A stretch of DNA of 48,147 nt from a phage: sequence record PV636260.1; one strand, 5' to 3'. Both the position numbers and the translations under genes were made by a program. Numbering within the stretch: the stretch's first letter is position 1; every line of letters starts with the position of its first letter. A model generated the notes under the pieces. That model did no database searches, was not told where the DNA came from, and worked only from the letters and a program-made list of their open reading frames with translations. Positions 24,496 through 41,714 of the stretch are shown in pieces.

Positions 24496-25020
24496 TTAAA
24501 GCATGTCAAGAATGCTATTTACTGCCTCTTTCATTGCATCCTCAGTAGTGGCGACTACTGTCGATGCGGAAGCTGACGAGTTTTCGATATTGATTGAGGC
24601 TGGCTTATCGATTCCGAGATCCTTACCGATAAAGGAGGCATTAATAACACCGTTGGCGGCAAGCTGGAATTTTTGCTCGTTGATTACCGATTCCACAAAC
24701 TCCATAACCTCACTGTATTCTTCCTCTCGCTTCCACTTAATGATTGCGGCCTCGCTTGCACCGATGAATAGTCGGTATCCGGTCCAGGTGAAGACTCGCG
24801 GCTTATGAACTAGCGATTCATAAACGCCACCCTGAAAGCTGGCTGATTCTGACGCCTTGATTGCGTTGTCCTCAGCCCATTCGAAATACTTAACTGACAG
24901 ATCGAATAGTTGCTCAGGCGTCATTGCCCGGTTTTTAGCAAGAACAGTGCCGAACTTTTTCTTGTATAGCTCTTTGAAATTACCTCCCTGGACTACGGGG
25001 GCGTTCTTAGGTTCACTCAT
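24496..25020 (-). CDS. terminase small subunit
   Basis: RBS AGAGGA; 174 aa directly upstream of TerL. Confidence 0.65.
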   Translation of the reverse strand: MSEPKNAPVVQGGNFKELYKKKFGTVLAKNRAMTPEQLFDLSVKYFEWAEDNAIKASESASFQGGVYESLVHKPRVFTWTGYRLFIGASEAAIIKWKREEEYSEVMEFVESVINEQKFQLAANGVINASFIGKDLGIDKPASINIENSSASASTVVATTEDAMKEAVNSILDML

Positions 25021-25035
25021 AAATCAATCCTCTTT

Positions 25036-25057
25036 GTTTAACATTTAGTGCTATTTT
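25036..25057 (-). promoter_or_regulatory. copy of the repeated element upstream of TerS
   Basis: Minus strand ATAGCACTAAATGTTAAAC directly upstream of the RBS. Confidence 0.45.
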
Positions 25058-25073
25058 ACCATATTGCAGGCAT

Positions 25074-25096
25074 AAAAAAACCCGCCGAAGCGGGTT
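25074..25096 (-). terminator. intrinsic terminator ending the leftward early operon
   Basis: AACCCGCTTCGGCGGGTT + T7 on minus strand. Confidence 0.7.
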
Positions 25097-25104
25097 AGTA
25101 TTTA

Positions 25105-25332
25105 TCACGATAATCGTCGTTTAATGCCTTTAGGGTGGGTCTGAGCTTTAGAGTAGCAGTGAGCAAGGTCGCCAGTCATTTCCCATTGATCCTTCTTAGG
25201 CGAGTAGGTCAGCCATACGCCAGTTTTATCTTTTGCTTCCGTAGCCATCATGAACGCTACAAGAACGAAGCCAGAAAATAAACCAGCACCAAAAATAACG
25301 ATACAAGCGATAATCCATAAAAAAATTTCCAT
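25105..25332 (-). CDS. small membrane protein
   Basis: RBS AAGGAGA; one strong TM helix (IFLWIIACIVIFGAGLFSGFVLVAFMM). Confidence 0.6.
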   Translation of the reverse strand: MEIFLWIIACIVIFGAGLFSGFVLVAFMMATEAKDKTGVWLTYSPKKDQWEMTGDLAHCYSKAQTHPKGIKRRLS

Positions 25333-25333
25333 G

Positions 25334-25519
25334 TTAAATCTCCTTAATTAATTCAATGTTTATTTTGTGAGTGTCAAGGTTTGCGCCGGAAAGTTTTTTG
25401 GCTTTCGTGATGGCTTCTGCCTGACTGGTTGCTGATAATTCAGTCTCGAAAGATTGTTTGCATGATTGGCAAAACATCCCCATCTTTCGAATGATTAATT
25501 TAACTTTGAATCGCTTCAT
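25334..25519 (-). CDS. hypothetical protein
   Basis: ORF in operon context. Confidence 0.5.
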   Translation of the reverse strand: MKRFKVKLIIRKMGMFCQSCKQSFETELSATSQAEAITKAKKLSGANLDTHKINIELIKEI

Positions 25520-25661
25520 CTTCTTGCGCCTTAATCATAACGCCATCGATGCGACCAATAACGGCCTCTCCAGGATTTAATCGCTTTTTATAACGAGTCG
25601 TTTTGCCGTTGCGAGTTACTTTAATTTCGATTTTGACTGATTCGTCTTTGATATTTTGCAT
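25500..25661 (-). CDS. hypothetical small basic protein (53 aa, not in ORF track)
   Basis: ATG 25661 with RBS GAGGA 8 nt upstream; MQNIKDESVKIEIKV... Confidence 0.45.
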   Translation of the reverse strand: MQNIKDESVKIEIKVTRNGKTTRYKKRLNPGEAVIGRIDGVMIKAQEDEAIQS

Positions 25662-25825
25662 TATGCAATCCTCTGGAATTGTTGCCGCTTACGGGTCTGC
25701 GGCGTTGCTTAACCACTATGCAACCGAGCTTGTTAGCTGGGAGTGTGAGAATCGTCTCACGCGTTGCGCTTCTTTGCGCCTCGTCTGTCTACGGGGTTAA
25801 TACTATCACCGCTAAGCGATTCAGG

Positions 25826-26029
25826 TCAATCATTAATTTCGAATTGTCCCTTAGTCATATCCTGCGGGTAATCAATCTCATGCAAGTTTCCATCGTCGCC
25901 GTACACATATATGAGTCTCTTTGCTTTACTAACCTTTTCCACATCGTAAGAGCATCCCGCTGAGAAAGCATCACTATTGCGTGATGTAATGCATCGAACC
26001 TGATCGCCTTTCTTCGGTAAGTTAGCCAT
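25826..26029 (-). CDS. hypothetical protein
   Basis: ORF, TAATG coupling with upstream gene. Confidence 0.5.
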   Translation of the reverse strand: MANLPKKGDQVRCITSRNSDAFSAGCSYDVEKVSKAKRLIYVYGDDGNLHEIDYPQDMTKGQFEIND

Positions 26030-26259
26030 TATTCGTAATCCCCCTCTTTGTTACCTACACGCCCTGCGATATACCCGGCAGTCCAGACAAACTTGTATCG
26101 ATCAATGAGTAGCTCAACCTTTTTGTGATGAGTTGAGATCACATCAATCATAATCTTTTCGTTTTTGCGATCTTCTTTCTTCATTCCGCTAACGAATTTA
26201 TTCAATTCCTTCGCTGCGCGCTTTACTACGTTCCATTCCGCTTCACTTAAACCGAACAT
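26029..26259 (-). CDS. hypothetical protein
   Basis: ORF, translationally coupled. Confidence 0.5.
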   Translation of the reverse strand: MFGLSEAEWNVVKRAAKELNKFVSGMKKEDRKNEKIMIDVISTHHKKVELLIDRYKFVWTAGYIAGRVGNKEGDYE

Positions 26260-26603
26260 TATTTACCTCTCCCAAATGAAAAATTAACACCTAAAACCTG
26301 ATTGCAAACTGATTCCATGTATCGCAACTGATATTGAGCAACCTTTGAAGGGCTTAATTCATCAGTAAATAAGTCATCAACATTGATTTCTTTTTTATGC
26401 TTGCGCTTCCATGCCTTGATGATATTGGGCAGGATTCGCTCGCTTTTCCAGGCTGCAAACTCAGCTTGATTCGTTGAAACAGGAGTAAGTTGTTTTTCGA
26501 TCTGGTTTAGCAACTCGGCGGCCGCTCCTTTTATATGCAACTGGTCGCCGATCGCATCAAGGATTTCACGAGCTTGCTTCTCTGACAGGTTAATCGTAAT
26601 CAT
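26259..26603 (-). CDS. hypothetical protein
   Basis: ORF, translationally coupled. Confidence 0.5.
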   Translation of the reverse strand: MITINLSEKQAREILDAIGDQLHIKGAAAELLNQIEKQLTPVSTNQAEFAAWKSERILPNIIKAWKRKHKKEINVDDLFTDELSPSKVAQYQLRYMESVCNQVLGVNFSFGRGK

Positions 26604-26809
26604 GCCTCTTCTCCCTCATCTTCGATCGGTGTAAAAAACTGAGTGTTCACTGCCGGGTTGTAATAAACCCCGTCATCATAGTCGCTTTCTTTCACTTCAA
26701 TGAAAACGTCGCAACCGTCATGCATGAAATCACCGTTATCAGTATGAACGAGTTCGAATACTTCAGAAGTTTTATTGCAAGTGAAAAACTTATCAGTTGA
26801 CACCATCAT
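26600..26809 (-). CDS. hypothetical small acidic protein
   Basis: ORF with upstream element and hairpin; Asp/Glu-rich. Confidence 0.5.
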   Translation of the reverse strand: MMVSTDKFFTCNKTSEVFELVHTDNGDFMHDGCDVFIEVKESDYDDGVYYNPAVNTQFFTPIEDEGEEA

Positions 26810-26837
26810 TTCTATTTTCTCTCTTCGTTGTCGATGA

Positions 26838-26887
26838 GGTGACTATATCAAATCACCCCACCGACGTTTTAGCAATTAGTGCTATTT
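26838..26887 (-). promoter_or_regulatory. repeated element (ATAGCACTAATTGCTAAAAC) plus hairpin with -10-like TATAGT
   Basis: Stop codon TAG of the kinase gene lies inside the element; hairpin GGTGA-N10-TCACC. Confidence 0.55.
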
Positions 26888-27454
26888 GTTGATGAACGTA
26901 GCGGCTATGTGCTGAGCGGTAATTTCAGGATGACCCTCAACAGAGAAGAAATCACATTCCTGATAACCGTTAACCCCGATCATATCGTCCAGGTAGATAT
27001 AATCGCGACTGTCGTTATCGAAGTTGCAACCGTTGCGATGTATGCGGCATAGCTTGACCTTGATATCGCCTTCAATCATTTGCAAGATCTCGTCTTTGAA
27101 TCCCCCGTCAGTAAATACCGAAAGTGAGTGCGACTCTTTCACCTTGCTTTCCGCTCGCATACCGAAGAATCGATTTCCGAACTGCGGCTTGATGACTTCC
27201 TCGCTAATCCAGATCATAAACTGGCGCGGGCTTTTACCGTTCAGGATTGACGCTGGCTCTTCTTTGTAACGACGGTCCTCATACAAGAACATGAAATACT
27301 CGTAGTTAGTTTCACCCAGGATTGCCCGAGCAATCTCAAACATTGGTGCTTTGAAGCTGCGCAAAGCTACATGATCGTAAGTGTCAGCCAGGATGCATCC
27401 GATAGTGTCCTTGCCTGCTCCAGGAGCGCCGTTTAAAATGATAGCTGTTTTCAT
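26882..27454 (-). CDS. P-loop nucleotide kinase (dNMP kinase / PNK kinase-like)
   Basis: N-terminal Walker A ILNGAPGAGKDT. Confidence 0.65.
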   Translation of the reverse strand: MKTAIILNGAPGAGKDTIGCILADTYDHVALRSFKAPMFEIARAILGETNYEYFMFLYEDRRYKEEPASILNGKSPRQFMIWISEEVIKPQFGNRFFGMRAESKVKESHSLSVFTDGGFKDEILQMIEGDIKVKLCRIHRNGCNFDNDSRDYIYLDDMIGVNGYQECDFFSVEGHPEITAQHIAATFINK

Positions 27455-27455
27455 A

Positions 27456-27566
27456 TCAGTATCTCCCTAAAAATAATTTTGCCATATTGATAATAGTGTG
27501 ATTGATGATTAGCAGGATGATAACCGTCAATACCGGATGTGCTGCAATAAATTCGTATAGGTTCAT
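27456..27566 (-). CDS. 36-aa hydrophobic peptide between phosphatase and kinase (not in ORF track)
   Basis: ATGA overlap with phosphatase stop, TGA then 1 nt before the kinase ATG; RBS GGGGTAGAG; MNLYEFIAAHPVLTVIILLIINHTIINMAKLFLGRY. Confidence 0.4.
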   Translation of the reverse strand: MNLYEFIAAHPVLTVIILLIINHTIINMAKLFLGRY

Positions 27567-28096
27567 TTCTCTACCCCGTGCGATTTTAAATGATCGTGAA
27601 CGTTATCGCCATAGTCAACTACAGCATATGTGGTTATTCCAAGCGACCGGAATAATGGAATAATTTGCGGTGAATCATCCCAAGCCGCGAGGATGTTTTC
27701 AATACCGATAGCTCGCACCGCTTCCTCTTTCATCACTGTGTCTTTCCGGTTGTCGGTGTGCGGTCGCATGACTAAGTAATCATATCGCGCACCGTGATGC
27801 TTAAGCCATAACTCAGATGCGTAACGAACCTCATCACTTCGCCCGGTTAAAACTATTACGTGATACCCAGCGGCAAACATAGAGTTCATCACCTCAATCG
27901 TGCTCTGGATGGGGTTATCAAATATTGCGGCTCGATTAAACTCAGACCAGCTTTCAGTCAAGTGCAAATCCTTTTTTGGCAACAGGTGAATGCGCTTTGA
28001 TCCGTCACTCAGTGTTCCGTCAAAGTCAAAGATTGCGACGCGGCGCGGACCGAGAAACAGGTTGATAGTTTGACCCCAAATTGTAATTTTATCCAT
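27563..28096 (-). CDS. HAD-superfamily phosphatase (PNK 3'-phosphatase-like)
   Basis: Motif I FDFDGTL near N-terminus; later VLTGR and Asp-rich motifs. Confidence 0.7.
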   Translation of the reverse strand: MDKITIWGQTINLFLGPRRVAIFDFDGTLSDGSKRIHLLPKKDLHLTESWSEFNRAAIFDNPIQSTIEVMNSMFAAGYHVIVLTGRSDEVRYASELWLKHHGARYDYLVMRPHTDNRKDTVMKEEAVRAIGIENILAAWDDSPQIIPLFRSLGITTYAVVDYGDNVHDHLKSHGVEK

Positions 28097-28132
28097 GATT
28101 TATTCCTCTGATCGGTTGTTTAACTCAACGAA

Positions 28133-28181
28133 GGGCACTATATCAAATGCCCTTGAGCAAGTTTTAGCAATTCGTGCTATT
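28133..28181 (-). promoter_or_regulatory. repeated element (ATAGCACGAATTGCTAAAAC) plus hairpin with TATAGT
   Basis: Hairpin GGGCA-N10-TGCCC; element abuts the stop codon of 28180..28626. Confidence 0.55.
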
Positions 28182-28626
28182 ACCAGTAATCTAACTCGCG
28201 TCCAACCCAGGCGTCAAAGTCACTTTGGCAGAATGTGCCGCTATAATTTTCCATCATTTCATCGATCAGGAAGTTGGCTGGCTCTCCGATGCTATAGAAG
28301 TATAAATCAGCAGCGTTACGCGCCCAGCGCCCGGCATCTTTCTTGCTCATCTTCCAGTATTTAATTGCAATCTTCTTGAATGCGCGAACTACGCGCTTGC
28401 GGATCTTGATATGCTTGTATACCGCATTGCAGCCGTAAGCCATATATTCATTGTTGCCAAGATTCTGCATGATGTACGGATTAACGTCTTTTGACGTAAT
28501 CATCAGTTCGCCATCTCCGCGACGCGCATAATAAATGCTTGCTGTCATGTAGTGACCTTTGAACATTCCAATGCCGTACAGGGTATGTTCATCGTTAGGT
28601 GTATCAATGCAAATCAAATGTTTCAT
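28180..28626 (-). CDS. hypothetical protein
   Basis: Start moved to ATG 28626 with RBS GAGGGAA. Confidence 0.5.
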   Translation of the reverse strand: MKHLICIDTPNDEHTLYGIGMFKGHYMTASIYYARRGDGELMITSKDVNPYIMQNLGNNEYMAYGCNAVYKHIKIRKRVVRAFKKIAIKYWKMSKKDAGRWARNAADLYFYSIGEPANFLIDEMMENYSGTFCQSDFDAWVGRELDYW

Positions 28627-28651
28627 GAGTGTTCCCTCGTTCGTTGGTGTG

Positions 28652-28700
28652 GGGGAATCATAGCGCATTCCCCTTGATAGGTTTTAGCAATTCGTGCTAT
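28652..28700 (-). promoter_or_regulatory. repeated element plus hairpin with TATGAT
   Basis: ATAGCACGAATTGCTAAAAC; hairpin GGGGAAT-N8-ATTCCCC. Confidence 0.55.
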
Positions 28701-28902
28701 TCGTTTTAATAGTGATGCAAAAATAATTTTTTAAGCACGTCACCACGCGCGCTGAATCGACTTGTGGGAGCATTAAAATTTCGTGGACCAATTGCACTGC
28801 CGACACCTCAGATTTGTAGTAGTGTGCGATTCTGGAGGTATTTGGGCGCATTCCTTCCACTGCGTCACGCGCTGCATCTTCTGCTGTCATGATAGTAGCC
28901 AT
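28684..28902 (-). CDS. hypothetical protein (uncertain; 3' end reads through the repeated element)
   Basis: ORF track only; weak RBS. Confidence 0.3.
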   Translation of the reverse strand: MATIMTAEDAARDAVEGMRPNTSRIAHYYKSEVSAVQLVHEILMLPQVDSARVVTCLKNYFCITIKTNSTNC

Positions 28903-29010
28903 AAAACACCCTTAAGAGATAATGTCAGGACCAGGAGGCAGAATAGCAACTCCTGAAATGATGGCGGCTCGTTATTCCAGTTAGAAAAGTCTGGCATAGT
29001 GTTTTCTCCA

Positions 29011-29040
29011 AAAGAAAGGGGAACCGCTCAGAGTCGATTC
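29011..29040 (-). terminator. terminator-like hairpin downstream of 29051..29689
   Basis: GGGGAATCGACTCTGAGCGGTTCCCC then TTTCTTTT on minus strand. Confidence 0.5.
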
Positions 29041-29050
29041 CCCGTTAAAA

Positions 29051-29689
29051 TTACATGATGAACAATAGCGAAATCGAAGCGACCAAGAGAACAATCGCAA
29101 TAGCCAGGCCAGACAAGTCTGCTTTCTCTTCAAACTTCAGTGCTGGCTTGCGGTCAGCATTAATAGGCTTGACGTTGCTAATCTTGCTGGTGTTGATCTT
29201 GCCGTTGGCGCGGAAGGTGCGCTTGCGCTTCTTGCCGAACGTTGCAAACTTAGTGCCGCCGCTATTCCAGCGAAGACCCTCTCCGTTGTGCGTTACGGTT
29301 GCAATGCGGTTGCGGCCCGTGTCGTCGGTAATTACAGCCGTGTGCTTAGCGTGCTCAGAGGGAACGTCGTAAATTTTGCCAACAGTAAATTTTTTGGTGT
29401 TATCGCTGATACATTCGAATTTCATAAATTTTACCTCTTTATTATGCAGTTGGTTGATTGCTTCGATTACGTCGTTAAATTTAACACCATCCACGATTCG
29501 ATGGAAGATATATTTTGAACTGCCGCCATACGGAAGGAAGATCTCCTGATATTCGTGACGCCGTACAACGTTTACGTTACTACCGTACTCATCAACTATA
29601 ACGAAGCTGTCGTCATTGACGCGAGCGCCTTCGTAGATTTTGCCGTACTTAAAACCAGATCCTATACTTGATACGCATTCAAATTTCAT
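29051..29689 (-). CDS. tail-anchored membrane protein with tandem duplicated domain
   Basis: Two repeats starting MKFEC(V/I)S...GKIY; basic linker; C-terminal TM helix LSGLAIAIVLLVASISLLFIM. Confidence 0.55.
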   Translation of the reverse strand: MKFECVSSIGSGFKYGKIYEGARVNDDSFVIVDEYGSNVNVVRRHEYQEIFLPYGGSSKYIFHRIVDGVKFNDVIEAINQLHNKEVKFMKFECISDNTKKFTVGKIYDVPSEHAKHTAVITDDTGRNRIATVTHNGEGLRWNSGGTKFATFGKKRKRTFRANGKINTSKISNVKPINADRKPALKFEEKADLSGLAIAIVLLVASISLLFIM

Positions 29690-29973
29690 GGTCTAACCTT
29701 CCTGTAAGGCTTGATTGATAACATCACGTATTGCGTGAAGTCGCATTCTTGCTCGTCATACCCGCGATTGATGTATGGCGTCACATCGGTAACATCGGAT
29801 ACCCTGGCGTGAACTTCCCACCCGGTAAACTCACCGCGATCGAACTCGCGTAGCTCCAGAATATCGCCAGGCCGGAAGTTTCGATCATTGACGCGGAACT
29901 CTGCCGTTTTGGTGCCGTTCATTACTCCAATAAAATGTACCGTGTTGATCTTAAGTTTGTGAATATTGCTCAT
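29686..29973 (-). CDS. ASCH-domain protein
   Basis: GxKxxExR signature (NGTKTAEFR) near N-terminus. Confidence 0.55.
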   Translation of the reverse strand: MSNIHKLKINTVHFIGVMNGTKTAEFRVNDRNFRPGDILELREFDRGEFTGWEVHARVSDVTDVTPYINRGYDEQECDFTQYVMLSIKPYRKVRP

Positions 29974-30163
29974 CTTCCTTCACCTCGAATGTTACGTTCC
30001 AAAATTTATTGCCGCAAGAATGATAGGTTACGTCATGCGGAGTTAGTTCGTGCAATGCATGACCGATGATTTCCATGCGATCGTTCGGTGCCAGGCATCG
30101 AAGTGATTCACGAAGGCGTGAAGCCTTGTCGTAAATCTGCCACTGCGTGAGTCGTGTAGCCAT
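29951..30163 (-). CDS. hypothetical protein (start revised to ATG 30163)
   Basis: Strong RBS AAGGAA before internal ATG; the track start is a TTG. Confidence 0.45.
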   Translation of the reverse strand: MATRLTQWQIYDKASRLRESLRCLAPNDRMEIIGHALHELTPHDVTYHSCGNKFWNVTFEVKEDEQYSQT

Positions 30164-30173
30164 AGCTAATTCC

Positions 30174-30251
30174 TTATTTGCAAAATGGGCAGGTTGATTT
30201 ATTTCCGCTGCCACCATGATTAGGGCAGCACAATTTCTCAATTGGCGTCAT
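30174..30251 (-). CDS. 25-aa Cys-rich mini-protein (not in ORF track)
   Basis: RBS GAGGAA 7 nt before ATG; MTPIEKLCCPNHGGSGNKSTCPFCK; stop TAA overlaps the next RBS. Confidence 0.35.
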   Translation of the reverse strand: MTPIEKLCCPNHGGSGNKSTCPFCK

Positions 30252-30285
30252 AACTGATTCCTCTGATTGGTTGCCATGCTTCAAT

Positions 30286-30335
30286 AAGGCCACTATATCA
30301 AATGGCCTTGCGGAAGGTTTAGCAATTCGTGCTAT
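30286..30335 (-). promoter_or_regulatory. repeated element plus hairpin with TATAGT
   Basis: ATAGCACGAATTGCTAAAC; hairpin AAGGCCA-N10-TGGCCTT. Confidence 0.55.
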
Positions 30336-30481
30336 CGTTTAACACACATTGTTTTTACTTCGTATCCGAACGGCTTGTTTTCTGCAATTACTTCACGAGC
30401 TTTGTTACATGATTGCTGACTCTCCATGTATACGTGATCCGGCCCGGTGCTCATCAGTATAATCAATACCCATGCAGCCAT
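30332..30481 (-). CDS. 49-aa hypothetical protein with hydrophobic N-terminus (not in ORF track)
   Basis: TAATG coupling to upstream gene, RBS GGTGA; stop TAG is the TAG of the repeated element. Confidence 0.4.
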   Translation of the reverse strand: MAAWVLIILMSTGPDHVYMESQQSCNKAREVIAENKPFGYEVKTMCVKR

Positions 30482-30987
30482 TATTTCACCTCGTAGCGTA
30501 CAAGCGTTCCGCGCTTAATGCTGATTTCACCTGATACCGTATTGTTCTTGAAGCTGCCGTGATGCAATAGAAGCGTGATGATATCGTCGTGCACCTCAAT
30601 AGTTTTTGGTATCGCGGTAATCTCAACCCAAGAATCGCTGCTAATCTGGACACCTTTTAGCTTTGCGCTAAGTGGCATGTTCTCGATCTGAGAGCACTGT
30701 ATAGACGGCTTGATTTCTGGCTTTGCAGCTTTGAATATCGAGCCTTCAATCTTCCAGCTATAATACAAGCTGTAAGCATTATGACCGTCACTCATAATGT
30801 AGTGGTAGTCCTTATTTGGTGAGTTTTCTTTATTCACTTCATTATGTCTGGCAATAAACCACTCCAGATTAAGCTGCGACACCTTATCAGTGGCCCATGT
30901 ACCCTTATCTTTATCGGTGAACGTAATTTCACCACATCCCATGCTGATAAATTTGATCGGGAATTTAACGTCTTCTAATTTCAACAT
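30481..30987 (-). CDS. hypothetical protein
   Basis: ORF preceded by element, hairpin and RBS AAGAGGAAA. Confidence 0.55.
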   Translation of the reverse strand: MLKLEDVKFPIKFISMGCGEITFTDKDKGTWATDKVSQLNLEWFIARHNEVNKENSPNKDYHYIMSDGHNAYSLYYSWKIEGSIFKAAKPEIKPSIQCSQIENMPLSAKLKGVQISSDSWVEITAIPKTIEVHDDIITLLLHHGSFKNNTVSGEISIKRGTLVRYEVK

Positions 30988-31013
30988 AATGATTTCCTCT
31001 TAGTGGTTGATGT

Positions 31014-31061
31014 GGGATTGTACCAGTCAGGACGAATCCCCTTTTAACAATTCGTGCTTAG
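31014..31061 (-). promoter_or_regulatory. repeated element (AGCACGAATTGTTAAAAG) plus hairpin with TACAAT
   Basis: Sequence match and position. Confidence 0.5.
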
Positions 31062-31552
31062 TAGACTAGCTCGCACTCAATAGAGAACGGTTCGGAGTCG
31101 CGATGGAAGAAGCAAAGTGACTCTTTATTCATCCCACCCCAAAAACCTACAGCATTGAGTTGTTCATTGCCAACGTAAGCTAGGGTGCTGGTAATTTCCT
31201 CAAAGTCAACAATAACCGGGAACGTGCGATTCTCATAACCAGGGCGCATAGGATACCCGCCATTGTTGAGAAGTCGAACCTTGCGCGGCTTGATGTTTGC
31301 CTGGACTTCCCATTTAAAAAAGAACATCGTTCCGTCCTTCTCGTTGAAGTCAGCCGGGCCAAATGCCGGACTAACCGATAGGCCGTAATCAAGATCGTAC
31401 ACGCCAGCTTTAACCAGGTCATCGACCTTTACGCGGTAGCCACCGCCGCCCAAGCTATCATCGCACTTCACCGCGTCAACGATAATCGGGTCTGATTCCA
31501 GGTCGCGAGTAAAGCCTTTGTAACCGCCAGTGCACAGTAATTTAATTTTCAT
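31058..31552 (-). CDS. hypothetical protein (start revised to ATG 31552)
   Basis: RBS GAGGACGAGAG; the longer track ORF would run through the regulatory element. Confidence 0.5.
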   Translation of the reverse strand: MKIKLLCTGGYKGFTRDLESDPIIVDAVKCDDSLGGGGYRVKVDDLVKAGVYDLDYGLSVSPAFGPADFNEKDGTMFFFKWEVQANIKPRKVRLLNNGGYPMRPGYENRTFPVIVDFEEITSTLAYVGNEQLNAVGFWGGMNKESLCFFHRDSEPFSIECELVY

Positions 31553-31577
31553 GCTCTCGTCCTCATTCGTTGTCGAT

Positions 31578-31629
31578 GTGGTTACTATATCGCAACCACA
31601 TGATCGCGTTTTAACAAAAAGTGCTATTT
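31578..31629 (-). promoter_or_regulatory. repeated element (ATAGCACTTTTTGTTAAAAC) plus hairpin with TATAGT
   Basis: Hairpin GTGGTT-N10-AACCAC. Confidence 0.55.
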
Positions 31630-31863
31630 CATCAGAGTGAAGCAACGAATCTCGTTTGGCTTAAAGATGAATGTCTGTATGCCATTGATAAGACCTGCGT
31701 GAATAACTTCGAACCCAAACTCTTTCTTTACATACCTTACAAATTCGAAGGTTGTACGATAATCACCATTGAATCCAAACGTCTCGGGGTTAAGCTGGAA
31801 TGCTTCGCCTGGGTTTAGTCGCATCAAGATACCTTTCAGGGCGTCATGCTTAATTTTGCTCAT
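31624..31863 (-). CDS. hypothetical protein
   Basis: ORF in operon. Confidence 0.5.
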   Translation of the reverse strand: MSKIKHDALKGILMRLNPGEAFQLNPETFGFNGDYRTTFEFVRYVKKEFGFEVIHAGLINGIQTFIFKPNEIRCFTLMK

Positions 31864-31865
31864 GA

Positions 31866-32441
31866 TTACTTCTCCTCATCCAGTAAATGCGAGCGGAATT
31901 GCTCGACCAGCTTGTTGAGATCGGATACCGAGATATTGCTGCCTTCAAAATCCCTCAAATCGATTCTGAACGCTTCAACCTTCGCATTGAACACGTCGGC
32001 TATGCTCTTTCGCTTCCGACCTCTCTTGCCCTGTTTAGCTTCGCATATGACCTTCTTCGCTTCCTCACCTTCTAGTTCGGTTATGAATATCGTCACCCCG
32101 TCAACCTGATCGCGGTTGATTCGCACAGATACGGCCTTATTGTGCACCTTGAGCATGTGGCGCTTGATGATATTGGACACATACGACGCGGTGAGTCGTT
32201 CTAGCAACCAGGCTGATCGAGATGTGTACTCGTTAACGACTGCCTCATCAATCTGGTCATCGTTAAGTTCCACGCCATGAGTAGCCTTTACAATCTCGGC
32301 CTGCTCATTGACGTACACTTCAACCATTTGCTTTCCGGTGATTGAGAACTCATTCCCTGATTGGTTGATTTCAATCGCCTTTCGAATATAGTCCGGCAGG
32401 TTGAGTTCAAATTCTGTCACTTCTTTAAGCTGAGTTTTCAC
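31866..32441 (-). CDS. hypothetical protein, first gene of the leftward early operon
   Basis: GTG start after GAGGT; 191 aa. Confidence 0.5.
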   Translation of the reverse strand: MKTQLKEVTEFELNLPDYIRKAIEINQSGNEFSITGKQMVEVYVNEQAEIVKATHGVELNDDQIDEAVVNEYTSRSAWLLERLTASYVSNIIKRHMLKVHNKAVSVRINRDQVDGVTIFITELEGEEAKKVICEAKQGKRGRKRKSIADVFNAKVEAFRIDLRDFEGSNISVSDLNKLVEQFRSHLLDEEK

Positions 32442-32489
32442 TTGTCTATACCTCGTTGTCTATGGTTGTAACTTTCAACTTCGAAAAAC

Positions 32490-32519
32490 ATGTTACAGCT
32501 ACAACGTCAGATGCGTCAA
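32490..32519 (-). promoter_or_regulatory. candidate sigma70-like leftward early promoter
   Basis: Minus strand TTGACG - 18 bp - TAACAT, about 50 nt upstream of the first gene. Confidence 0.35.
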
Positions 32520-32851
32520 TGTCTATAGCTGCATTTTTTATTTTTGTAACCAGTGCAACCGATGCAACCGACTTTTTCTATAAAAGTAAGAACATCTATT
32601 TATGCGCGCGGAATAGTATGTTTTTTATACTATGCATCACGAAATATATGCCACCCTCAAAAAATGCGGTTGCACCTATTACGCCGATTACATACCAATA
32701 TATAATATAATAAATAAATAAATATATATTATCTATCTTATTATTATATATAGATATTTTATTATCTATAGGCCTATCGATTCTCTGGCCATTTTGTAAC
32801 ACCCCTGATGGTATACAACTATTACGACAATTACAACTAACGCATAGACGA

Positions 32852-32871
32852 ATAGCACGTTTTGCTAAAAA
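32852..32871 (+). promoter_or_regulatory. copy of the repeated element within the large intergenic region (no obvious -10 at the usual spacing)
   Basis: ATAGCACGTTTTGCTAAAAA. Confidence 0.4.
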
Positions 32872-33221
32872 TGGAGATGACCACCAGGCGAACTGGGTAA
32901 CACTAAATCCCCCCTCTCACAATCATTGCAATCTAAGCAACAAATCAACCAACTGTTGCACACCATGCAACAATCACATTTCATCATTCGAGATCAATCA
33001 TGATCGTAATTATTCCAGATATTCCAGTATTGATGGAATAATGAGCAATTATTGGAATAGCATTTTTTGCCACACATCAGCCCTGCCGATCGGGTATGAT
33101 TCATCTCATCAACCAATCAGAGGAGATTTGCAGTGAAATTAATCTGGTCGCTATTCGACGGTTCCGGCCTTGCAGGTCATGAACTTAACTTTGCGCGATG
33201 TCTTCCGTTTTGAGGTGATGA

Positions 33222-33749
33222 ATGATTTGGCACGATTACTTTACATACAATCCGAAAACTGGAAAGCTGTTCTGGAAAGAAAGAAAAGATATACACAAAT
33301 CAAGAGTTAAACAATGGAATGCTCGCAATGCTGGTAATGAGGTTGGCTCTTTGGGTAGTGGTGGCAGATATTTAGAAACTACACTTACTGTAAACGGAAA
33401 ACGTTATAACCTGAAAGTTCATAGAATATGCTATGAAATGCACTATGGCCCAATACCTGAAGGAAAGGCGGTTGATCACGTAAATCACATCACGACTGAT
33501 AACAGAGCAATAAACTTTGAGTTAAAAGATCATAAAGGAAATATGCGAAACACATCAAAACAGAAAAACAATACAAGTGGCATACCAGGTGTGCATAAAA
33601 ATAAACATGGCAAATGGGTTGTAAGGATTGGAGGGGGAAAGCGAGGGAGGAGGATTTACATAGGGTGCTTCTCAAGTTTTGATGATGCGATTTCCGCAAA
33701 GAAAGCAGCTGAATATGAACATGGATACCATGAAAACCACGGCAAATAG
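33222..33749 (+). CDS. HNH endonuclease with C-terminal AP2 DNA-binding domain
   Basis: HNH core VDHVNHITTDNRAINFEL; AP2-like SGIPGVHKNKHGKWVVRI...IGCFSSFDDAISAKKAAEYEHG; RBS GAGGTGA. Confidence 0.7.
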   Translation: MIWHDYFTYNPKTGKLFWKERKDIHKSRVKQWNARNAGNEVGSLGSGGRYLETTLTVNGKRYNLKVHRICYEMHYGPIPEGKAVDHVNHITTDNRAINFELKDHKGNMRNTSKQKNNTSGIPGVHKNKHGKWVVRIGGGKRGRRIYIGCFSSFDDAISAKKAAEYEHGYHENHGK

Positions 33750-33765
33750 CACTTTTTGTTAAAAC
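33746..33765 (+). promoter_or_regulatory. repeated element (ATAGCACTTTTTGTTAAAAC) abutting the HNH stop codon
   Basis: The TAG of ATAGCAC is the HNH stop codon; -10-like TAATTA about 20 bp downstream. Confidence 0.5.
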
Positions 33766-33822
33766 TCGATCGGTGCGATTTGGCATAATTACCTCATCGA
33801 AACGAGATTGAGGAAAAACAAA

Positions 33823-34008
33823 ATGGCACGTCGCATCACTAAAGAACTTAAAGTTCTGAACAAAGAAAACGTAGTTAAAATCCTGGTTATTTGGGGATAC
33901 AGCGAAGAGTCAGCAAAGCAGAAGGTAGAAGCAGGTTACGACCTGGCTATCAAGGCAATGCCTAACGACGACGCAAAAGGCATTGCAAACTATGTAGCGT
34001 TCTTTTAA
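33823..34008 (+). CDS. hypothetical protein
   Basis: ATG 33823 after GAGGAAAAA. Confidence 0.5.
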   Translation: MARRITKELKVLNKENVVKILVIWGYSEESAKQKVEAGYDLAIKAMPNDDAKGIANYVAFF

Positions 34009-34023
34009 TTAACAGGCTAACAA

Positions 34024-34209
34024 ATGAAAACGAAATTAGTGCATAAATCAGAAATCAAGATCGGCGATACTGTGATTCACAACGGAGAGCTTAAAACTGT
34101 TGGCAAGGAGTCAATAACCAAAGATGAATTTATGGGGTTATTGTTGTTCGGGGACTCCTATCGACTTGGTTACAAAATGGTTGAGCTTGTTGAAGATGTA
34201 AAATTCTAA
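34024..34209 (+). CDS. hypothetical protein
   Basis: ORF; stop followed directly by the repeated element. Confidence 0.5.
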   Translation: MKTKLVHKSEIKIGDTVIHNGELKTVGKESITKDEFMGLLLFGDSYRLGYKMVELVEDVKF

Positions 34210-34259
34210 ATAGCACTTTTTGCTAAACGAAAATGCGGGAGGGCTGCTATAGTTCTCCC
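34210..34259 (+). promoter_or_regulatory. repeated element (ATAGCACTTTTTGCTAAAC) plus hairpin with TATAGT
   Basis: Hairpin GGGAG-N13-CTCCC with TATAGT in the loop, then RBS GAGGTAA. Confidence 0.55.
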
Positions 34260-34284
34260 ATCAACAGAAAACGAGGTAATCACC

Positions 34285-34656
34285 ATGTTTAAACAATTCG
34301 TAGACCTGGACTTCTCAGCAAGCACAGCAATCCAGACTGACGAGAAAGAGAACGTAGCGATCGAGAACATTGCGCGAAAGATTTACAACAAGCAAGAGAA
34401 GGCAGTGAGAGCCGCTCTAAGCGCTTATTACGGCGTAAGTGATGCAATGGAGTGCGTGAACCGAGTAACCCGCGCAGTGGACCATTTAGGCGTGTCTCGC
34501 TTCATTGATAATGATACTGGAGAGACAATAATCCAGCTTAACAACCCATCAATGCGGACCGAGCTTGGCAATATTGCATTATGGGGCGTGGCTAACTACT
34601 CAATCACTGTAAACTCCTGCATTGCGGATCGTGTTAAGGAGGCATTGTATGAGTGA
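34285..34656 (+). CDS. hypothetical protein
   Basis: ORF with RBS. Confidence 0.55.
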   Translation: MFKQFVDLDFSASTAIQTDEKENVAIENIARKIYNKQEKAVRAALSAYYGVSDAMECVNRVTRAVDHLGVSRFIDNDTGETIIQLNNPSMRTELGNIALWGVANYSITVNSCIADRVKEALYE

Positions 34657-34849
34657 TAATATCTACCGCGTGGTTGCGATCTCACGCAAGACGCAAAAGA
34701 GAGTAGTTGCCTACATGGGAAATAGCGCAATTGAAGCTACGGATGCCTTCGAACTATTGAAGAACAACGAGGGATTTATGAACACGTTCCGCGTTCGACT
34801 TGAGCGCCTCGAACCTGTTATCATTGATGAAGCGCGAAAGCTATCCTGA
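34651..34849 (+). CDS. hypothetical protein
   Basis: ATG 34651 overlapping the upstream stop (ATGAGTGA). Confidence 0.5.
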
Positions 34850-34866
34850 CTGGTTAAGGGGGAGTA

Positions 34867-35187
34867 ATGAACCACACTTACAAAATCACAACGAAGTCAC
34901 CGAAGATTAACGGAAGCACGGTTGCGGCACTGAATAACGCGGCGGCAATTCACGAAAAAAATATCATGGAGCGCGTGAAGGCGGCGGTAGGTAGATTCTA
35001 CGGGATCAATGCCGACATTGCCGACAGCAAGCGACTGTTCAAATACGTTCCAGGTCATCCATATGGCAGGATGATTGATATCAAGCATGAAAAAGAATTG
35101 GTTCGAATCGGATCGCTAAGCATTGATGAGTTCGATCATAGCATCAACCTGGTGACGGCGTATCAAACTTGGGACGGTAAAAAATGA
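34867..35187 (+). CDS. hypothetical protein
   Basis: RBS AAGGGGGAG. Confidence 0.55.
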   Translation: MNHTYKITTKSPKINGSTVAALNNAAAIHEKNIMERVKAAVGRFYGINADIADSKRLFKYVPGHPYGRMIDIKHEKELVRIGSLSIDEFDHSINLVTAYQTWDGKK

Positions 35188-35327
35188 TTTATATTCACAC
35201 TTTCTATACTGGCAAATTTAACAACGTAAAAAATGTTCGCGTTTACGATAGCCACCAAAAAGCAATGATGCAGAAAGTAGTTCTAGGCGGCACAACCAAA
35301 GAGTGCAAAGTAATTTCTGAGTACTGA
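35184..35327 (+). CDS. 47-aa hypothetical protein (not in ORF track)
   Basis: ATGA coupling with upstream stop; stop TGA immediately before the repeated element. Confidence 0.4.
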   Translation: MIYIHTFYTGKFNNVKNVRVYDSHQKAMMQKVVLGGTTKECKVISEY

Positions 35328-35378
35328 TAGCACGAATAGCTAAAGACAATCAGCAAGGGAGTAAGGTATATTACTCCC
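35327..35378 (+). promoter_or_regulatory. repeated element (ATAGCACGAATAGCTAAAG) plus hairpin with TATATT
   Basis: Hairpin GGGAGTA-N8-TACTCCC. Confidence 0.5.
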
Positions 35379-35404
35379 ACACCAAACAAACAAAGGAATT
35401 AAAA

Positions 35405-35629
35405 ATGAGCATTAAAGTTGAGAATATCATCAAGCACCTGAACGCGAAAGGCCGTGTAGTTATCAAAATGGATAAGTCTTCCGGTTTTATTTCAATGACG
35501 GTAACTAAGACTCGTAACGGTAATAACGTTATCGGCAGCACGCCAGGCTCTCGCTTAGTAAATGCAACAGATGCTGATGTGCGCGCTACGCTTGAGGCTA
35601 ACTCAATTTACATTAATTCATGGAGTTAA
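35405..35629 (+). CDS. hypothetical protein
   Basis: RBS AAAGGAA. Confidence 0.55.
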   Translation: MSIKVENIIKHLNAKGRVVIKMDKSSGFISMTVTKTRNGNNVIGSTPGSRLVNATDADVRATLEANSIYINSWS

Positions 35630-35632
35630 TTG

Positions 35633-35842
35633 ATGGAACGGGATAATTTCTGGACTCGTTATTTTGCCGCTCTTGATGCCGGGCTTAGTGCGGAATGGTG
35701 TATCAAGGTTGCATATAAGGAAATCACACTTGAGGACGCGCTAGGAAATATGGATATGGACGCAGAAAGCGAATATAATCCAAACTTCGAGTTACCTGGC
35801 GATGATATTGATGAGGACGACGACGATTATATTCCCTGGTAA
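35633..35842 (+). CDS. small highly acidic protein
   Basis: C-terminus PGDDIDEDDDDYIPW; 69 aa. Confidence 0.5.
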   Translation: MERDNFWTRYFAALDAGLSAEWCIKVAYKEITLEDALGNMDMDAESEYNPNFELPGDDIDEDDDDYIPW

Positions 35843-35892
35843 ATAGCACGATTTGTTAATATTGCCGTAAGGTCATTTGATAAAGTGACCTT
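35843..35892 (+). promoter_or_regulatory. repeated element (ATAGCACGATTTGTTAATA) plus hairpin with TAAAGT
   Basis: Hairpin AAGGTCA-N10-TGACCTT. Confidence 0.5.
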
Positions 35893-35922
35893 ATTCAAGA
35901 TAACCAATCAGGAGTTAATGCG

Positions 35923-36339
35923 ATGAAATCAATCAAACTGAAATGTACTTACGCCGATAAAATCACAGGATTTGAAATTAACAACCTATACAAAGGTCGA
36001 GAGCGTTTCGATGGCACTCGCGAAGTAAAATTAAAATGCGGCAAGTATTTAAAACTTGAAAAGCATGATGAATTACAGATTCACGGATCTGATGAAATCT
36101 TCTTCGCGAAGTTCACTGAGTTGAAAACAAAGACGCTCAAGTGCACCGGGCTTGACCATCGCAACCCAATGAAAAAATCATTCAAAGTTGGCAAGCGTTA
36201 CCAGGTTGAAAGCGGTCGCGCTCTCGGTGGAGTAGCTGGTTACATCTTTGATGAAGATGGTTGTCGCTGGACCTTATTTCGCGAAGAGGTTGGTTTTAGT
36301 ATCGCAGACGGCACAAACTTTGAGGCCAAATACTTATAA
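35923..36339 (+). CDS. hypothetical protein
   Basis: RBS CAGGAG. Confidence 0.55.
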   Translation: MKSIKLKCTYADKITGFEINNLYKGRERFDGTREVKLKCGKYLKLEKHDELQIHGSDEIFFAKFTELKTKTLKCTGLDHRNPMKKSFKVGKRYQVESGRALGGVAGYIFDEDGCRWTLFREEVGFSIADGTNFEAKYL

Positions 36340-36342
36340 CCA

Positions 36343-36394
36343 ATAGCACTTTTTGCAAAACGCGTGTACCATTGGCGGTGTATCATTCACACCG
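36343..36394 (+). promoter_or_regulatory. repeated element (ATAGCACTTTTTGCAAAAC) plus hairpin with TATCAT
   Basis: Followed by RBS AAAGGAG and start at 36416. Confidence 0.5.
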
Positions 36395-36415
36395 TCAACA
36401 AAGGAGTTTATTGTG

Positions 36416-39740: not shown

Positions 39741-39917
39741 TTAATCTATCGCAATAAATTCCAGGTAGTGACCGTTCAGAGGCGCTTGGATTGCTGAACC
39801 TCGCCCGTCGTAAATCTCAAATAATCCCCCACAGAAATCATAACCAACACTATAGATCTGATTTACACGGAATGGAAGTGTCTTGGAGTCATTTCGGATG
39901 CACTTAACTAGCTTCAT
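39741..39917 (-). CDS. 58-aa hypothetical protein (not in ORF track)
   Basis: RBS AAAGAGG before ATG 39917; preceded by repeated element and hairpin. Confidence 0.45.
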   Translation of the reverse strand: MKLVKCIRNDSKTLPFRVNQIYSVGYDFCGGLFEIYDGRGSAIQAPLNGHYLEFIAID

Positions 39918-39950
39918 GATATAGCCTCTTTGTTTCGATGTGGTTACTAT

Positions 39951-39990
39951 GCCCGAATCCCTTCGGGCGTTTTTATCAATTAGTGCGATC
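39951..39990 (-). promoter_or_regulatory. variant repeated element (GCACTAATTGATAAAAAC) plus hairpin
   Basis: Hairpin GCCCGAA-N4-TTCGGGC followed by TAGTAA. Confidence 0.45.
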
Positions 39991-41209: not shown

Positions 41210-41611
41210 TCATGCCACAGCCTTTAACCAGAATCCTAGATCTGAAGATTTAAACTCAACTAGTTTTCCATCAACCTCAAGCATCATACTGTTTCTACCT
41301 GGTGAGTAATAACCTATATGCAACTCTTGCTCGATCCCAATAGTGCAAAGCACGTTAACGAAGTCAGGAGGCAACCAATCAGAGAAAGGGATTTGCTTAA
41401 CCTGCTTCTTTCCGATCCATATAGTCTGGTAATCTTCTTCGTTAATGTTTAAGCCTGGAAGACTTGTTGTTCTTTGATGTTTTTCGTTCTCGCTCAATTC
41501 TCTTTCCCTCTTCACGATAAAACTCAAGTGACGGAGTTGCTGGCACTCTATGCATTTTTCTCGGCATATCCTCCATAAATGAAATCTTGCCATTTGAGAT
41601 AATGCTAACAT
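41210..41611 (-). CDS. hypothetical protein (frame B; overlaps 41442..41714 out of frame)
   Basis: ORF track; start unclear. Confidence 0.35.
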   Translation of the reverse strand: MLALSQMARFHLWRICREKCIECQQLRHLSFIVKRERELSENEKHQRTTSLPGLNINEEDYQTIWIGKKQVKQIPFSDWLPPDFVNVLCTIGIEQELHIGYYSPGRNSMMLEVDGKLVEFKSSDLGFWLKAVA

Positions 41612-41714
41612 CCTTTATATCGAAATATTTCGCTATTAGTGCTATATCGTCTGAGATTCCGCACTCCTTCGCGTGCTCCCAAACCTCTCGTTTACCTTGT
41701 TTTTTTATCAGCAT
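41442..41714 (-). CDS. hypothetical protein (frame A)
   Basis: RBS GGAGAA before ATG 41714; the C-terminal third is low-complexity basic. Confidence 0.4.
   Translation of the reverse strand: MLIKKQGKREVWEHAKECGISDDIALIAKYFDIKDVSIISNGKISFMEDMPRKMHRVPATPSLEFYREEGKRIERERKTSKNNKSSRLKH
41627..41646 (-). promoter_or_regulatory. intragenic copy of the repeated element (ATAGCACTAATAGCGAAAT)
   Basis: Sequence match inside frame A, just upstream of the frame B start. Confidence 0.35.

Follow-up and report, generated by a model that had tools for sequence, protein, structure and literature searches.

The question raised by the 48,147-nucleotide stretch of sequence record PV636260.1 (hereafter the window) is what a short box, repeated in front of one gene after another, does for a virulent phage, and which protein reads it. 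The window is the near-complete genome of a T1-like siphovirus (Drexlerviridae, Tunavirus); its gene order is collinear with that of T1, and the phages AV106, DELF2 and ISF002 are 90-93% identical to it. To our knowledge, T1-like phages have no RNA polymerase or sigma factor of their own and show almost no canonical promoters in sequence scans. An earlier note, made from the letters alone, had described about 25 copies of a partially palindromic box with a -10-like hexamer at fixed spacing, densest between positions 25036 and 36394, and had likened them to the MotA-dependent middle promoters of phage T4, with a phage-encoded factor as the probable reader. We find that the box is, at the level of sequence and geometry, a class II marbox, the kind of site used by the host activators MarA, SoxS and Rob. 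We consider it probable, though well short of certain, that the modules headed by the box are class II MarA/SoxS/Rob-type sigma70 promoters that would use the host activator and would carry, as a separate element, a hairpin acting at the RNA level. The marbox reading, the nested hairpin and the placement of boxes at late promoters appear to be new in the searchable literature, in which we found no paper linking marboxes with phage promoters.

A repeated box at a fixed distance from an extended -10

An iterated position weight matrix (PWM) gave 29 matches of at least 10 bits in the window, 27 of them at or above 17.7 bits, against a null mean of 2.5. The heptamer ATAGCAC alone occurs 21 times and the literal pattern ATAGCAC-N4-6-KYTAAAAC only five times (0 expected), so that 'about 25 copies' is true only for a degenerate definition of the box. 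All positions previously listed outside the dense region (2096, 8376, 39969, 41957, 42981, 45489, 45958 and 47011-47053) were recovered by the matrix, together with further copies at 14564, 18329, 31060 and 33057. For a wider comparison, box-anchored modules were taken without realignment from 125 loci (T1, TLS, Rtp and IMG/VR contigs), yielding 510 unique modules; the offset of the hexamer was scored on 433 scorable modules, and hairpin statistics were based on 164 modules after redundancy reduction. Numbering starts with the first A of ATAGCAC at index 0, which places the box at indices 0-19 (-50 to -31), the hexamer at 38-43 (-12 to -7) and +1 at index 50. Across the 510 modules the consensus of the box is A-T-A-G-C-A-C-K-W-W-T-T-G-Y-T-A-A-A-a/c-c/a, and A2 and T10 are also near-invariant. 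The palindrome TAGCA/TGCTA noted earlier is real, but its conservation is asymmetric, G3 being present in 99% of modules and its partner at index 13 being C in 68% and T in 30%. The box is invariant across Tunavirinae, Tempevirinae and Braunvirinae.

The repeat itself is already published, which the earlier note had missed. The 2024 re-annotation of phage TLS (Kropinski, Misra et al., PMC11447400) reported 18 intergenic copies of aaATAGCACnnnTTGnTAAAA as 21-nt direct repeats, situated ~76 nt 5' of start codons along the direction of transcription and divided into A, T and G sub-types of the central triplet, with similar repeats in T1, Rtp and Rogue1. Its authors proposed a stoperator, an enhancer or an UP element and listed the function among the open questions.

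The spacing between box and hexamer is tighter than had been claimed. An 18-bp gap after the 20-bp box dominates, the hexamer starting at index 38 in 331 of 433 modules (76%), at index 39 (19 bp) in 42 and at index 37 (17 bp) in 22. In register, the profile of the 510 modules shows a hexamer T-A-T-A-A/G-T, with A39 (-11) and T43 (-7) each at 81%; upstream of it G36 (-14) reaches 76% and T at -15 44%, and at the predicted start C49 (-1) reaches 67% and A50 (+1) 76%. This fits the criteria of a sigma70 extended -10, that is, TGn at -15/-14, TAnnnT at -12 to -7 and a purine start ~7 nt downstream. As the earlier note had stated, there is no -35 at 17 bp; the position 17 bp 5' of the hexamer reads AAAACn. 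Taking the TTGCTA within the box as a -35 was rejected, since it would stand 22 bp from the hexamer, a longer spacer than sigma70 accepts. The consensus of sigma54 promoters is TGGCAC-N5-TTGCW, with invariant GG and GC 10 bp apart; this class was rejected as well, the box (TAGCAC-N3-TTGC) having a spacing 2 bp short and AG where GG is needed.

About 18 modules of the window are followed by a ribosome-binding site (RBS) and then by a start codon 70-84 nt from the box. Comparison with related phages showed that the modules of the window and their T1 orthologues keep box and TAnnnT hexamer at the same place, including cases in which TATAGT and TAGAAT are swapped. The dense region showed no enrichment of canonical -35/-10 promoters (32, with shuffles giving 27.6), and no transcription-start-site mapping for Drexlerviridae was found in the literature. 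The description of a genome-wide set of bipartite elements therefore stands, as a sigma70 -10 without a -35 and with an upstream box at rigid spacing, the start sites being predicted; that these modules are promoters is very probable.

Match to the host marbox and the choice of reader

The marbox has been defined as the non-palindromic sequence 5'-gcannwwntgnnaaa-3', with class II sites lying forward, overlapping the -35 and centred between -36 and -55 (PMC12052159). This pattern, taken from the literature and independent of the phage data, has 19 exact matches in the window against 0.94 expected, and none of 100 shuffles reached 19. The 510-module profile of the phage box fits all defined marbox positions, and its W positions at indices 8-9 fall on degenerate ones. 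Every promoter-type copy has GCAC at its distal and AAA at its proximal end, which centres the 15-mer at -40 and the 20-bp box at -40.5. Validated class II sites are located at -41 (rfaYP1) and -39 (fumC), and the class II RamA site of micF, at ~-41, is a forward CACT-7N-AAA read by two helix-turn-helix motifs (HTHs) of a monomer (PMC8811837).

The comparison was also made in the opposite direction. Applied to 1.3 kb around E. coli K-12 marR, the PWM of the phage box found a single site, ATGCCACGTTTTGCTAAATC, in reverse orientation as expected for class I, with a score of 12.3 (next best -10.1; null 99th percentile 7.2). Upstream of E. coli micF it again found a single site, ACAGCACTGAATGTCAAAAC, which is forward and is followed after exactly 18 nt by TAGAAT, the annotated micF 5' end lying at index 51. 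Since site, strand and gap all match, the phage module agrees with micF in sequence class, in orientation and in spacing.

What the sequences show is the identity of the motif, its orientation, spacing and enrichment, its conservation in several phage lineages and the covariation of the hairpin; protein binding, activation and a role of the hairpin are inferred. A near-consensus marbox, forward at -50 to -31 in place of a -35 and 18 bp 5' of an extended -10 (TGnTAnnnT), would be bound by a monomeric host activator with two HTHs, one on GCAC and the other on TAAA. The activator would touch sigma region 4 and the alpha-CTD and recruit RNA polymerase, and transcription would start at an A 7 nt after the hexamer. 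In E. coli the activator set comprises Rob, MarA and SoxS, joined by RamA in Klebsiella and Salmonella. Were the host activator to recruit polymerase in this way, no phage RNA polymerase, sigma factor or activator would be needed for the ~18 early/middle units. An activator over the -35 region would be the best reading of the box, and a host protein, highly conserved across Enterobacteriaceae, would be the simplest candidate for its reader. We rate the chance that MarA, SoxS or Rob activates these promoters as somewhat better than even.

Several points weigh against this assignment. Little MarA or SoxS is present in cells that are not stressed, and most Rob is sequestered, so that it is not obvious how a fast lytic phage could live in dependence on them. 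The box may do no more than modulate promoters for which the extended -10 is enough. The phage box also varies less than host marboxes do, which a dedicated phage reader could explain equally well, and T1 Orf65 seems to act as expected of a box-binding protein, with its own box promoter up and pir down. Lastly, a record 94.5% identical to the box-bearing phage C130_2 described below (OR754315) was deposited as a Stutzerimonas stutzeri phage, a host that, if correct, lies outside Enterobacterales.

These points lead to the chief alternative, in which the promoters are the same and the box is read by a phage protein mimicking marbox specificity (Orf65, Pir or an unrecognised small protein), making the regulon phage-autonomous. 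Reporter assays in T1 showed that Pir activates hol and dam, the latter behind a box promoter, and represses itself and recE, and that Orf65 activates its own promoter and represses pir (PMC6737242). The uniformity of the box would suit such a reader; TAGCA-N5-TGCTA could in principle seat an HTH dimer, the canonical host-type promoter of pir would allow Pir to be made first, and many small early ORFs of the window have no assigned function. The T1 orf65 promoter is a perfect box module (window 28650-28700). Its activity is, however, Pir-independent in the same assays, in which the pir and hol promoter fusions were measured in phage-free BL21(DE3), T1 fusions being active in phage-free E. coli (PMC6737242). 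Homologues of Orf65 occur only in phages close to T1 (23 clusters at >=71% identity); Rtp and C130_2 lack one and the match in TLS is marginal, although all three phages have the invariant box. The idea that Orf65 has a MarA-like fold was dropped, its AlphaFold model (pLDDT 47) being too poor to judge.

Escherichia phage C130_2 (Hungariovirus, NC_048067) bears on several of these points. It has a podovirus-type virion module and shares with the window only replication/recombination genes, Dam, endolysin and one small unknown protein. It carries eight boxes of the same sequence, with modules at positions including 1345, 3760, 4736, 10710, 13857, 34813 and 37099, and six of the eight have the 18-bp gap to a hexamer with A second and T sixth. 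No Pir or Orf65 homologue was detectable in it. The protein put forward in the earlier note as one candidate reader, the HTH protein at 45522-45974 (+), is Pir (homologue of T1 orf23, 98.7% identical), with one Cro-type HTH at residues 54-84; its absence from C130_2 and the Pir-independence of the orf65 box promoter disfavour it. The other candidate, 39980-41131, for which an HTH N-terminus had been suggested, is an exonuclease (phrog_704, E 7e-157), in which Pfam detects no HTH. The sole unknown protein common to the window and C130_2 (ORF 41442-41714, 90 aa, phrog_2817) was considered and rejected, its good model (pLDDT 81.5) matching no DNA-binding or known fold (best E 1.4).

Domain scans with Pfam and PHROG covered 30 window proteins, some small ORFs lying outside the scan. 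No AraC/MarA-type HTH was found in these 30 proteins, and there was no Pfam or PHROG match to MotA or AsiA among them. A tblastn search with MarA against 50,697 phage records, including >400 Drexlerviridae genomes, returned no T1-like phage among the matches listed or in the organism tally of 126 hit records. The asymmetric conservation of the box resembles that of the marbox, unlike a dimer palindrome. With a fit to the host marbox at every defined position, class II orientation and micF spacing, the phage-encoded reader proposed earlier is not supported, and we regard it as unlikely.

A hairpin nested in the promoter

Between the box and +1 lies an inverted repeat, overlooked in the earlier note, whose arms vary from copy to copy and stay complementary. 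Among the 164 modules, 66 have stems of >=7 bp, against 23.8 in a position-preserving chimera null, and 35 have stems of >=8 bp (null 8.5); the mean minimum free energy is -10.2 against -7.1 kcal/mol. Helices of >=6 pairs, taken without preselection, are concentrated at two registers. At i+j = 59/61 (type B) the hairpin occupies the 18-bp spacer and the hexamer marks its 3' edge, and at 75/77 (type A) the loop contains the hexamer and the 3' arm extends to -1. The stems of both registers fall only on positions left free by the promoter; the 3' arm ends most often at -1 and the start of the 5' arm varies from index 18 to 30. Alignments of orthologues contained 4-6 distinct sequences per module, and covariation was tested by register-resolved comparison of paralogues instead; orthologous hairpins of the window and T1 show compensatory changes.

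The sense strand folds better than the antisense strand in 112 cases, against 52 of the reverse. Its internal mismatches are G.T in 89 cases and A.C in 14 in the full set, and 30 and 9 in non-redundant modules, for which the chimera null gives 14.2 and 7.8. Two reservations tell against the hairpin part of our reading, namely that the G.T excess is partly compositional and that the hairpin p-values are optimistic because the module sequences are phylogenetically related. Folding reaches -12 to -13 against ~-8 kcal/mol (p 5e-6) where the box follows the end of a co-directional ORF that has >=60 codons, and modules heading transcription units (33057+ in the window, 3760+ and 37099+ in C130_2) keep box and hexamer and have no hairpin.

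Because its 5' arm lies upstream of +1, the hairpin can form only in read-through RNA. In type B hairpins a GC-rich stem closes on a tetraloop, and in 45% the 8 nt that follow contain >=4 T, the hexamer forming the tail; type A hairpins have a mean of 1.3 T in the next 8 nt, >=4 T in only 4%, and no U-tract. Some database records annotate module hairpins as terminators. On account of the link to the upstream gene end and the T-tail pattern, we take the hairpin to be a 3' stem-loop belonging to the upstream cistron, a separate RNA-level element that would be absent from the module's own transcript and present in the read-through RNA of the preceding gene, where it may serve as a stabiliser and, in the spacer register, as a partial terminator. 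An N4-type or cruciform hairpin promoter was rejected, as the distance from hexamer to box is the same in both registers, the G.T excess argues for folding of one strand only and head modules have no hairpin. A lambda nut-like boxA/boxB arrangement was likewise rejected, given the variable distance between box and hairpin and the ~20 copies. The product of 29686-29973 (-), an 'RNA-binding protein' in RefSeq, has an ASCH/DUF3850 domain (Pfam E 1.8e-14) and no evident link to the hairpins.

The modules of the leftward early arm lie on the minus strand. Module 26835-26885 has its box at 26866-26885 (ATAGCACTAATTGCTAAAAC), TGaTATAGT with the hexamer at 26842-26847, a predicted +1 at 26835 and a hairpin at 26830-26865, and precedes an ORF of 69 aa (26600-26809). 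Module 28130-28180 (box 28161-28180, TATAGT, predicted +1 ~28130) precedes the polynucleotide kinase gene (27563-28096); the stop codon of the upstream gene abuts its box, its type A hairpin AAGGGCA/TGCCCTT (28131-28154) has the hexamer in the loop, and its T1 orthologue has TAGAAT at the same place. Module 28650-28700 (box 28681-28700, TATGAT, hairpin GGGGAAT/ATTCCCC at 28652-28673; T1 position 4344) heads the T1 Orf65 homologue (28180-28626). The perfect module 30285-30335 (box 30316-30335, TGaTATAGT, hairpin AAGGCCA/TGGCCTT at 30286-30309) is followed only by a Cys-rich ORF of 25 aa (30174-30251, MTPIEKLCCPNHGGS...), at the place of a 124-aa gene in T1. Module 31010-31060 combines a degenerate box (TAAGCACGAATTGTTAAAAG) with TGgTACAAT and the hairpin GGGATT/AATCCC before ORF 30481-30987. 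Module 31577-31627 (box 31608-31627, TATAGT) precedes ORF 31058-31552, and its hairpin ATGTGGTT/AACCACAT (31576-31601) is replaced in the T1 orthologue by the compensatory pair GGGGTT/AACCCC.

On the plus strand, the first rightward unit is headed by module 33057-33107, which has TATGAT behind a degenerate box (ATAGCATTTTTTGCCACACA) and lacks a real hairpin. The 26-aa ORF behind it (33133-33213) carries the LFDGSG motif typical of the cytosine methylase N-terminus, and the methylase gene is therefore taken to be truncated in the window; in relatives such genes are full-length or split. Further to the right are modules 33746-33796 (box 33746-33765, TGgCATAAT) before ORF 33823-34008, 34210-34260 (box 34210-34229, TGcTATAGT, hairpin GGGAG/CTCCC at 34237-34259) before ORF 34285-34656, 35327-35379 (box 35327-35346, ATAGCACGAATAGCTAAAGA; TATATT after a 20-bp gap; hairpin GGGAGTA/TACTCCC at 35357-35378) before ORF 35405-35629, 35843-35893 (box 35843-35862, TGaTAAAGT, hairpin AAGGTCA/TGACCTT at 35867-35894) before ORF 35923-36339, and 36343-36393 (box 36343-36362, TATCAT, hairpin 36372-36398) before the gene of a DNA helicase (36413-37984).

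Outside the dense region, four modules on the minus strand lie between 39939 and 45509. Module 39939-39989 (box ATCGCACTAATTGATAAAAA) precedes ORF 39741-39917, upstream of the lysis genes, and has CATAGT at the 3' edge of a type B hairpin in the spacer, GCCCGAA-GGGA-TTCGGGC (39951-39968). Module 41927-41977 (box ACAGCACTAATTGCTAAAAA, TATAGT, ORF 41692-41901) contains the type B hairpin ATACCCGGC-GAAA-GTCGGGTAT (41937-41958), the orthologue of which is annotated as a rho-independent terminator in the T1 record. Module 42950-43000 (box 42981-43000, CATTAT, type B hairpin ATGCCGGA/TCTGGCAT at 42960-42981) precedes the gene for Dam methylase (42216-42929). Module 45459-45509 (box 45490-45509, TATTAT) precedes a helicase gene (43410-45428), contains the inverted repeat AACGTTTAC-N20-GTAAACGTT (45454-45491) and overlaps the pir promoter, which is divergent. 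Module 45958-46008 (+; box ATAGCATTTTTAGTTAAAAC, TAACAT), located where pir ends, precedes the primase gene (46036-46971), and its hexamer lies in the loop of a U-tailed terminator, GACGCGTA...TACGCGTTTTTTATTTT (45982-46014). Module 2064-2114 (-), upstream of erf (1393-2040), has a degenerate box (ACGGCACAAATAGCTAAACA) and TGtTATAAT after a 17-bp gap, the hexamer being held in the 6-nt loop of the hairpin ATGAGGTGT/GCACCTCAT (2063-2086).

Boxes placed otherwise and relation to known systems

The earlier statement that copies are intergenic and oriented with the downstream gene holds for the ~18 copies just described and fails for five late-region copies, for 32852+ and for 41645-. Each of the five boxes found in the late (structural) region or next to it is placed in or just 3' of a core promoter or directly before an RBS; none is at -40, and in three of the five the orientation is opposite to that of the gene. 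The major head gene (17315-18274) has a canonical late promoter spanning 18326-18353 (-), with TTGACG at 18348-18353, a 16-bp spacer and TATTAT at 18326-18331; a reversed box at 18329-18348 fills this spacer and overlaps the -10, a repression-type position. At 8375-8414 (-), immediately after a terminator, the late promoter of a 1149-aa tail protein gene (TGtTATAAT, 8409-8414) is followed by a forward box (8375-8394) at ~+8 to +27, directly before the RBS and start codon. Another forward box (25035-25054, -), located after a terminator (25079-25096), stands directly 5' of the RBS and ATG of the small terminase gene terS (24496-25020) and has no hexamer at index 38. At the promoter 47000-47051 (+; TTGCAA 47000-47005, 17-bp spacer, TAAAAT 47023-47028), a reversed box (47032-47051) covers the start-site region and leader of the gene starting at ~47072 (+). 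The fifth, at 14564-14583 (+), is reversed and lies ~12 nt 5' of the RBS of the late ORF 14225-14542. On its own strand it has TGaTACGAT at index 38, which would start a ~40-nt antisense RNA from ~14614 into a GGGGGCGCAAGCCCCC hairpin; a small antisense RNA between two tail genes is possible.

A comparable arrangement is found at pir. Its canonical sigma70 promoter (45442-45470, +; TTGAAT 45442-45447, 17-bp spacer, TATAAT 45465-45470) faces the helicase module, and the two -10 elements overlap on opposite strands inside the AACGTTTAC-N20-GTAAACGTT loop. The pir leader holds a reverse-oriented box at ~+13 to +32, directly before the RBS. At these six places the box would hinder transcription, and the placement suggests repression by the same factor that would act at the modules. 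One factor might therefore activate early/middle units and restrain late ones, a speculation drawn from placement.

Two further copies are of other kinds. The orphan box at 32852-32871 (+; ATAGCACGTTTTGCTAAAAA) is perfect, has no hexamer and is kept in T1. It lies in a 780-bp AT-rich non-coding region (32440-33220) between the two early arms, which corresponds to the ends of the T1 map and includes a very AT-rich repetitive stretch (32690-32770). In the same region, a candidate canonical promoter without a box (TTGACG-18-TAACAT, 32490-32519, -) precedes the first gene of the leftward early arm (31866-32441). The box-like sequence at 41626-41645 (-) is inside ORF 41442-41714, with a TAGCAT hexamer and an internal ATG at the usual distance, and encodes the near-invariant peptide D-I-A-L-I-A-K-Y-F of a conserved protein of 80-90 aa (phrog_2817).

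The six boxes at repression-type positions (the five late-region copies and that of the pir leader) bear on a second alternative, in which the modules are self-sufficient extended -10 promoters and the box is a shut-off operator (stoperator-like), an UP-like element or a recombination sequence between cassettes. The G at -14 in 76% of modules and the good hexamers would fit such promoters, as would the proposals made for TLS (PMC11447400). Homology breakpoints between the window and 125 related loci are enriched at modules, with 21 of 167 falling within them (+/-15 bp) against 7.5 expected; this is compatible with cassette shuffling at boxes, as for the PeSL cassettes of T4-type phages (PMC4122927), but the excess is modest and intergenic breakpoints are expected anyway. 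Neither an operator nor a recombination site needs rigid 18-bp phasing or a single orientation to the -10, the box is not A/T-tract-like as an UP element would be, and the marbox match in sequence, orientation and distance would have to be a coincidence. We consider this alternative distinctly improbable. The mycobacteriophage L5-type stoperator was rejected in particular: L5 stoperators are asymmetric repressor sites in transcription units, oriented with transcription and blocking elongation, and most phage boxes lie 5' of a phased -10 and start rather than in transcribed regions, only ~6 being in leaders or core promoters.

That box and hairpin form an RNA element of long read-through transcripts (processing, antitermination, nut-like), the -10 likeness being incidental, could draw on sense-strand G.U pairing in the hairpin, on a 5-bp stem within the box for which the C/T variation at index 13 keeps G-C or G.U, and on the terminator annotations, but is very improbable in view of the hexamer-box distance that is fixed whichever the hairpin register, the sigma70 conservation profile (A-11 and T-7 highest, TG at -15/-14, C/A at the start), a box-hairpin distance that is variable unlike that of boxA-boxB, the lack of a match between the window and any Rfam family, and modules without an upstream gene that keep box and hexamer and lose the hairpin.

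The reading as class II promoters served by a host activator offers a testable mechanism for repeats whose function the 2024 paper lists as open. If it is true, gene expression of common coliphages and Klebsiella phages, widely used in phage-therapy collections, is coupled to the host stress regulon, whose inducers are antibiotics, salicylate, bile salts and oxidative stress, and drug-phage interactions are predicted; a virulent phage would hand promoter specificity to a host stress activator, a solution apparently adopted by two virion lineages. A bolder extension, which we think doubtful, is that T1-like siphoviruses and the unrelated Hungariovirus lineage use arrays of consensus marboxes to wire nearly all early/middle transcription to the host Mar/Sox/Rob regulon of antibiotic and oxidative stress, that the factor represses the late promoters with a marbox over core or leader, and that replication, with ~25 high-affinity sites per genome, titrates the factor, early promoters fading and late ones being released. 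If true, this titration would amount to a timer without a dedicated phage regulator, tunable by antibiotics, salicylate, bile salts and redox stress. The nested hairpin illustrates how one stretch of 50 bp can accommodate both a promoter and the 3' element of the gene before it.

Among known systems, the closest in architecture are the class II Mar/Sox/Rob(RamA) promoters (micF, fumC, rfaYP1, lpxCP2), which likewise have a forward, asymmetric 20-bp marbox over the -35 centred at ~-40/-41, a sigma70 core and no usable -35; micF, like the phage modules, has 18 bp between box and -10 hexamer. In contrast to the host promoters, the putative phage sites occur as ~18 near-identical copies per 48 kb, closer to consensus and in a virulent phage, and most modules have an extended -10 and a covarying hairpin in the spacer or around the -10. 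The late-region and pir-leader boxes have a parallel in repressive marboxes, which lie within -35 to +25 of the promoter (PMC12052159); repression by the phage boxes is inferred from such positions. The 21-nt repeats of TLS and other T1-like phages (aaATAGCACnnnTTGnTAAAA) are the same element as the box, described in PMC11447400 with no mention of a -10 at fixed distance, of the identity with the marbox, of the hairpin or of the different placement in the late region.

The T4 middle promoters, controlled by MotA and AsiA, are alike in that a box replaces the -35, the sigma70 -10 is stringent and often has TGn, and the many copies together make up a temporal class. In the T4 promoters, however, the MotA box (WWWTGCTTtA) has its centre at -30, with 12+/-1 bp between it and the -10 (PMC2988021), whereas the present box is centred at -40.5 with an 18-bp gap and reads TGCT then AAA, not TTtA; T4 middle promoters also need phage MotA and AsiA, and the likeness to sigma appropriation suggested earlier is not borne out. 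The PeSL cassettes of T4-type phages (PMC4122927) also comprise repeated stem-loops and promoters before small ORFs in variable regions, with homology breakpoints that tend to fall at them, and are the nearest described analogue of the nested hairpin. Their promoters are ordinary early sigma70 promoters, whereas the modules of the present phage have their stem-loop within an activator-type promoter, and their repeat is, by sequence, a host transcription-factor site.

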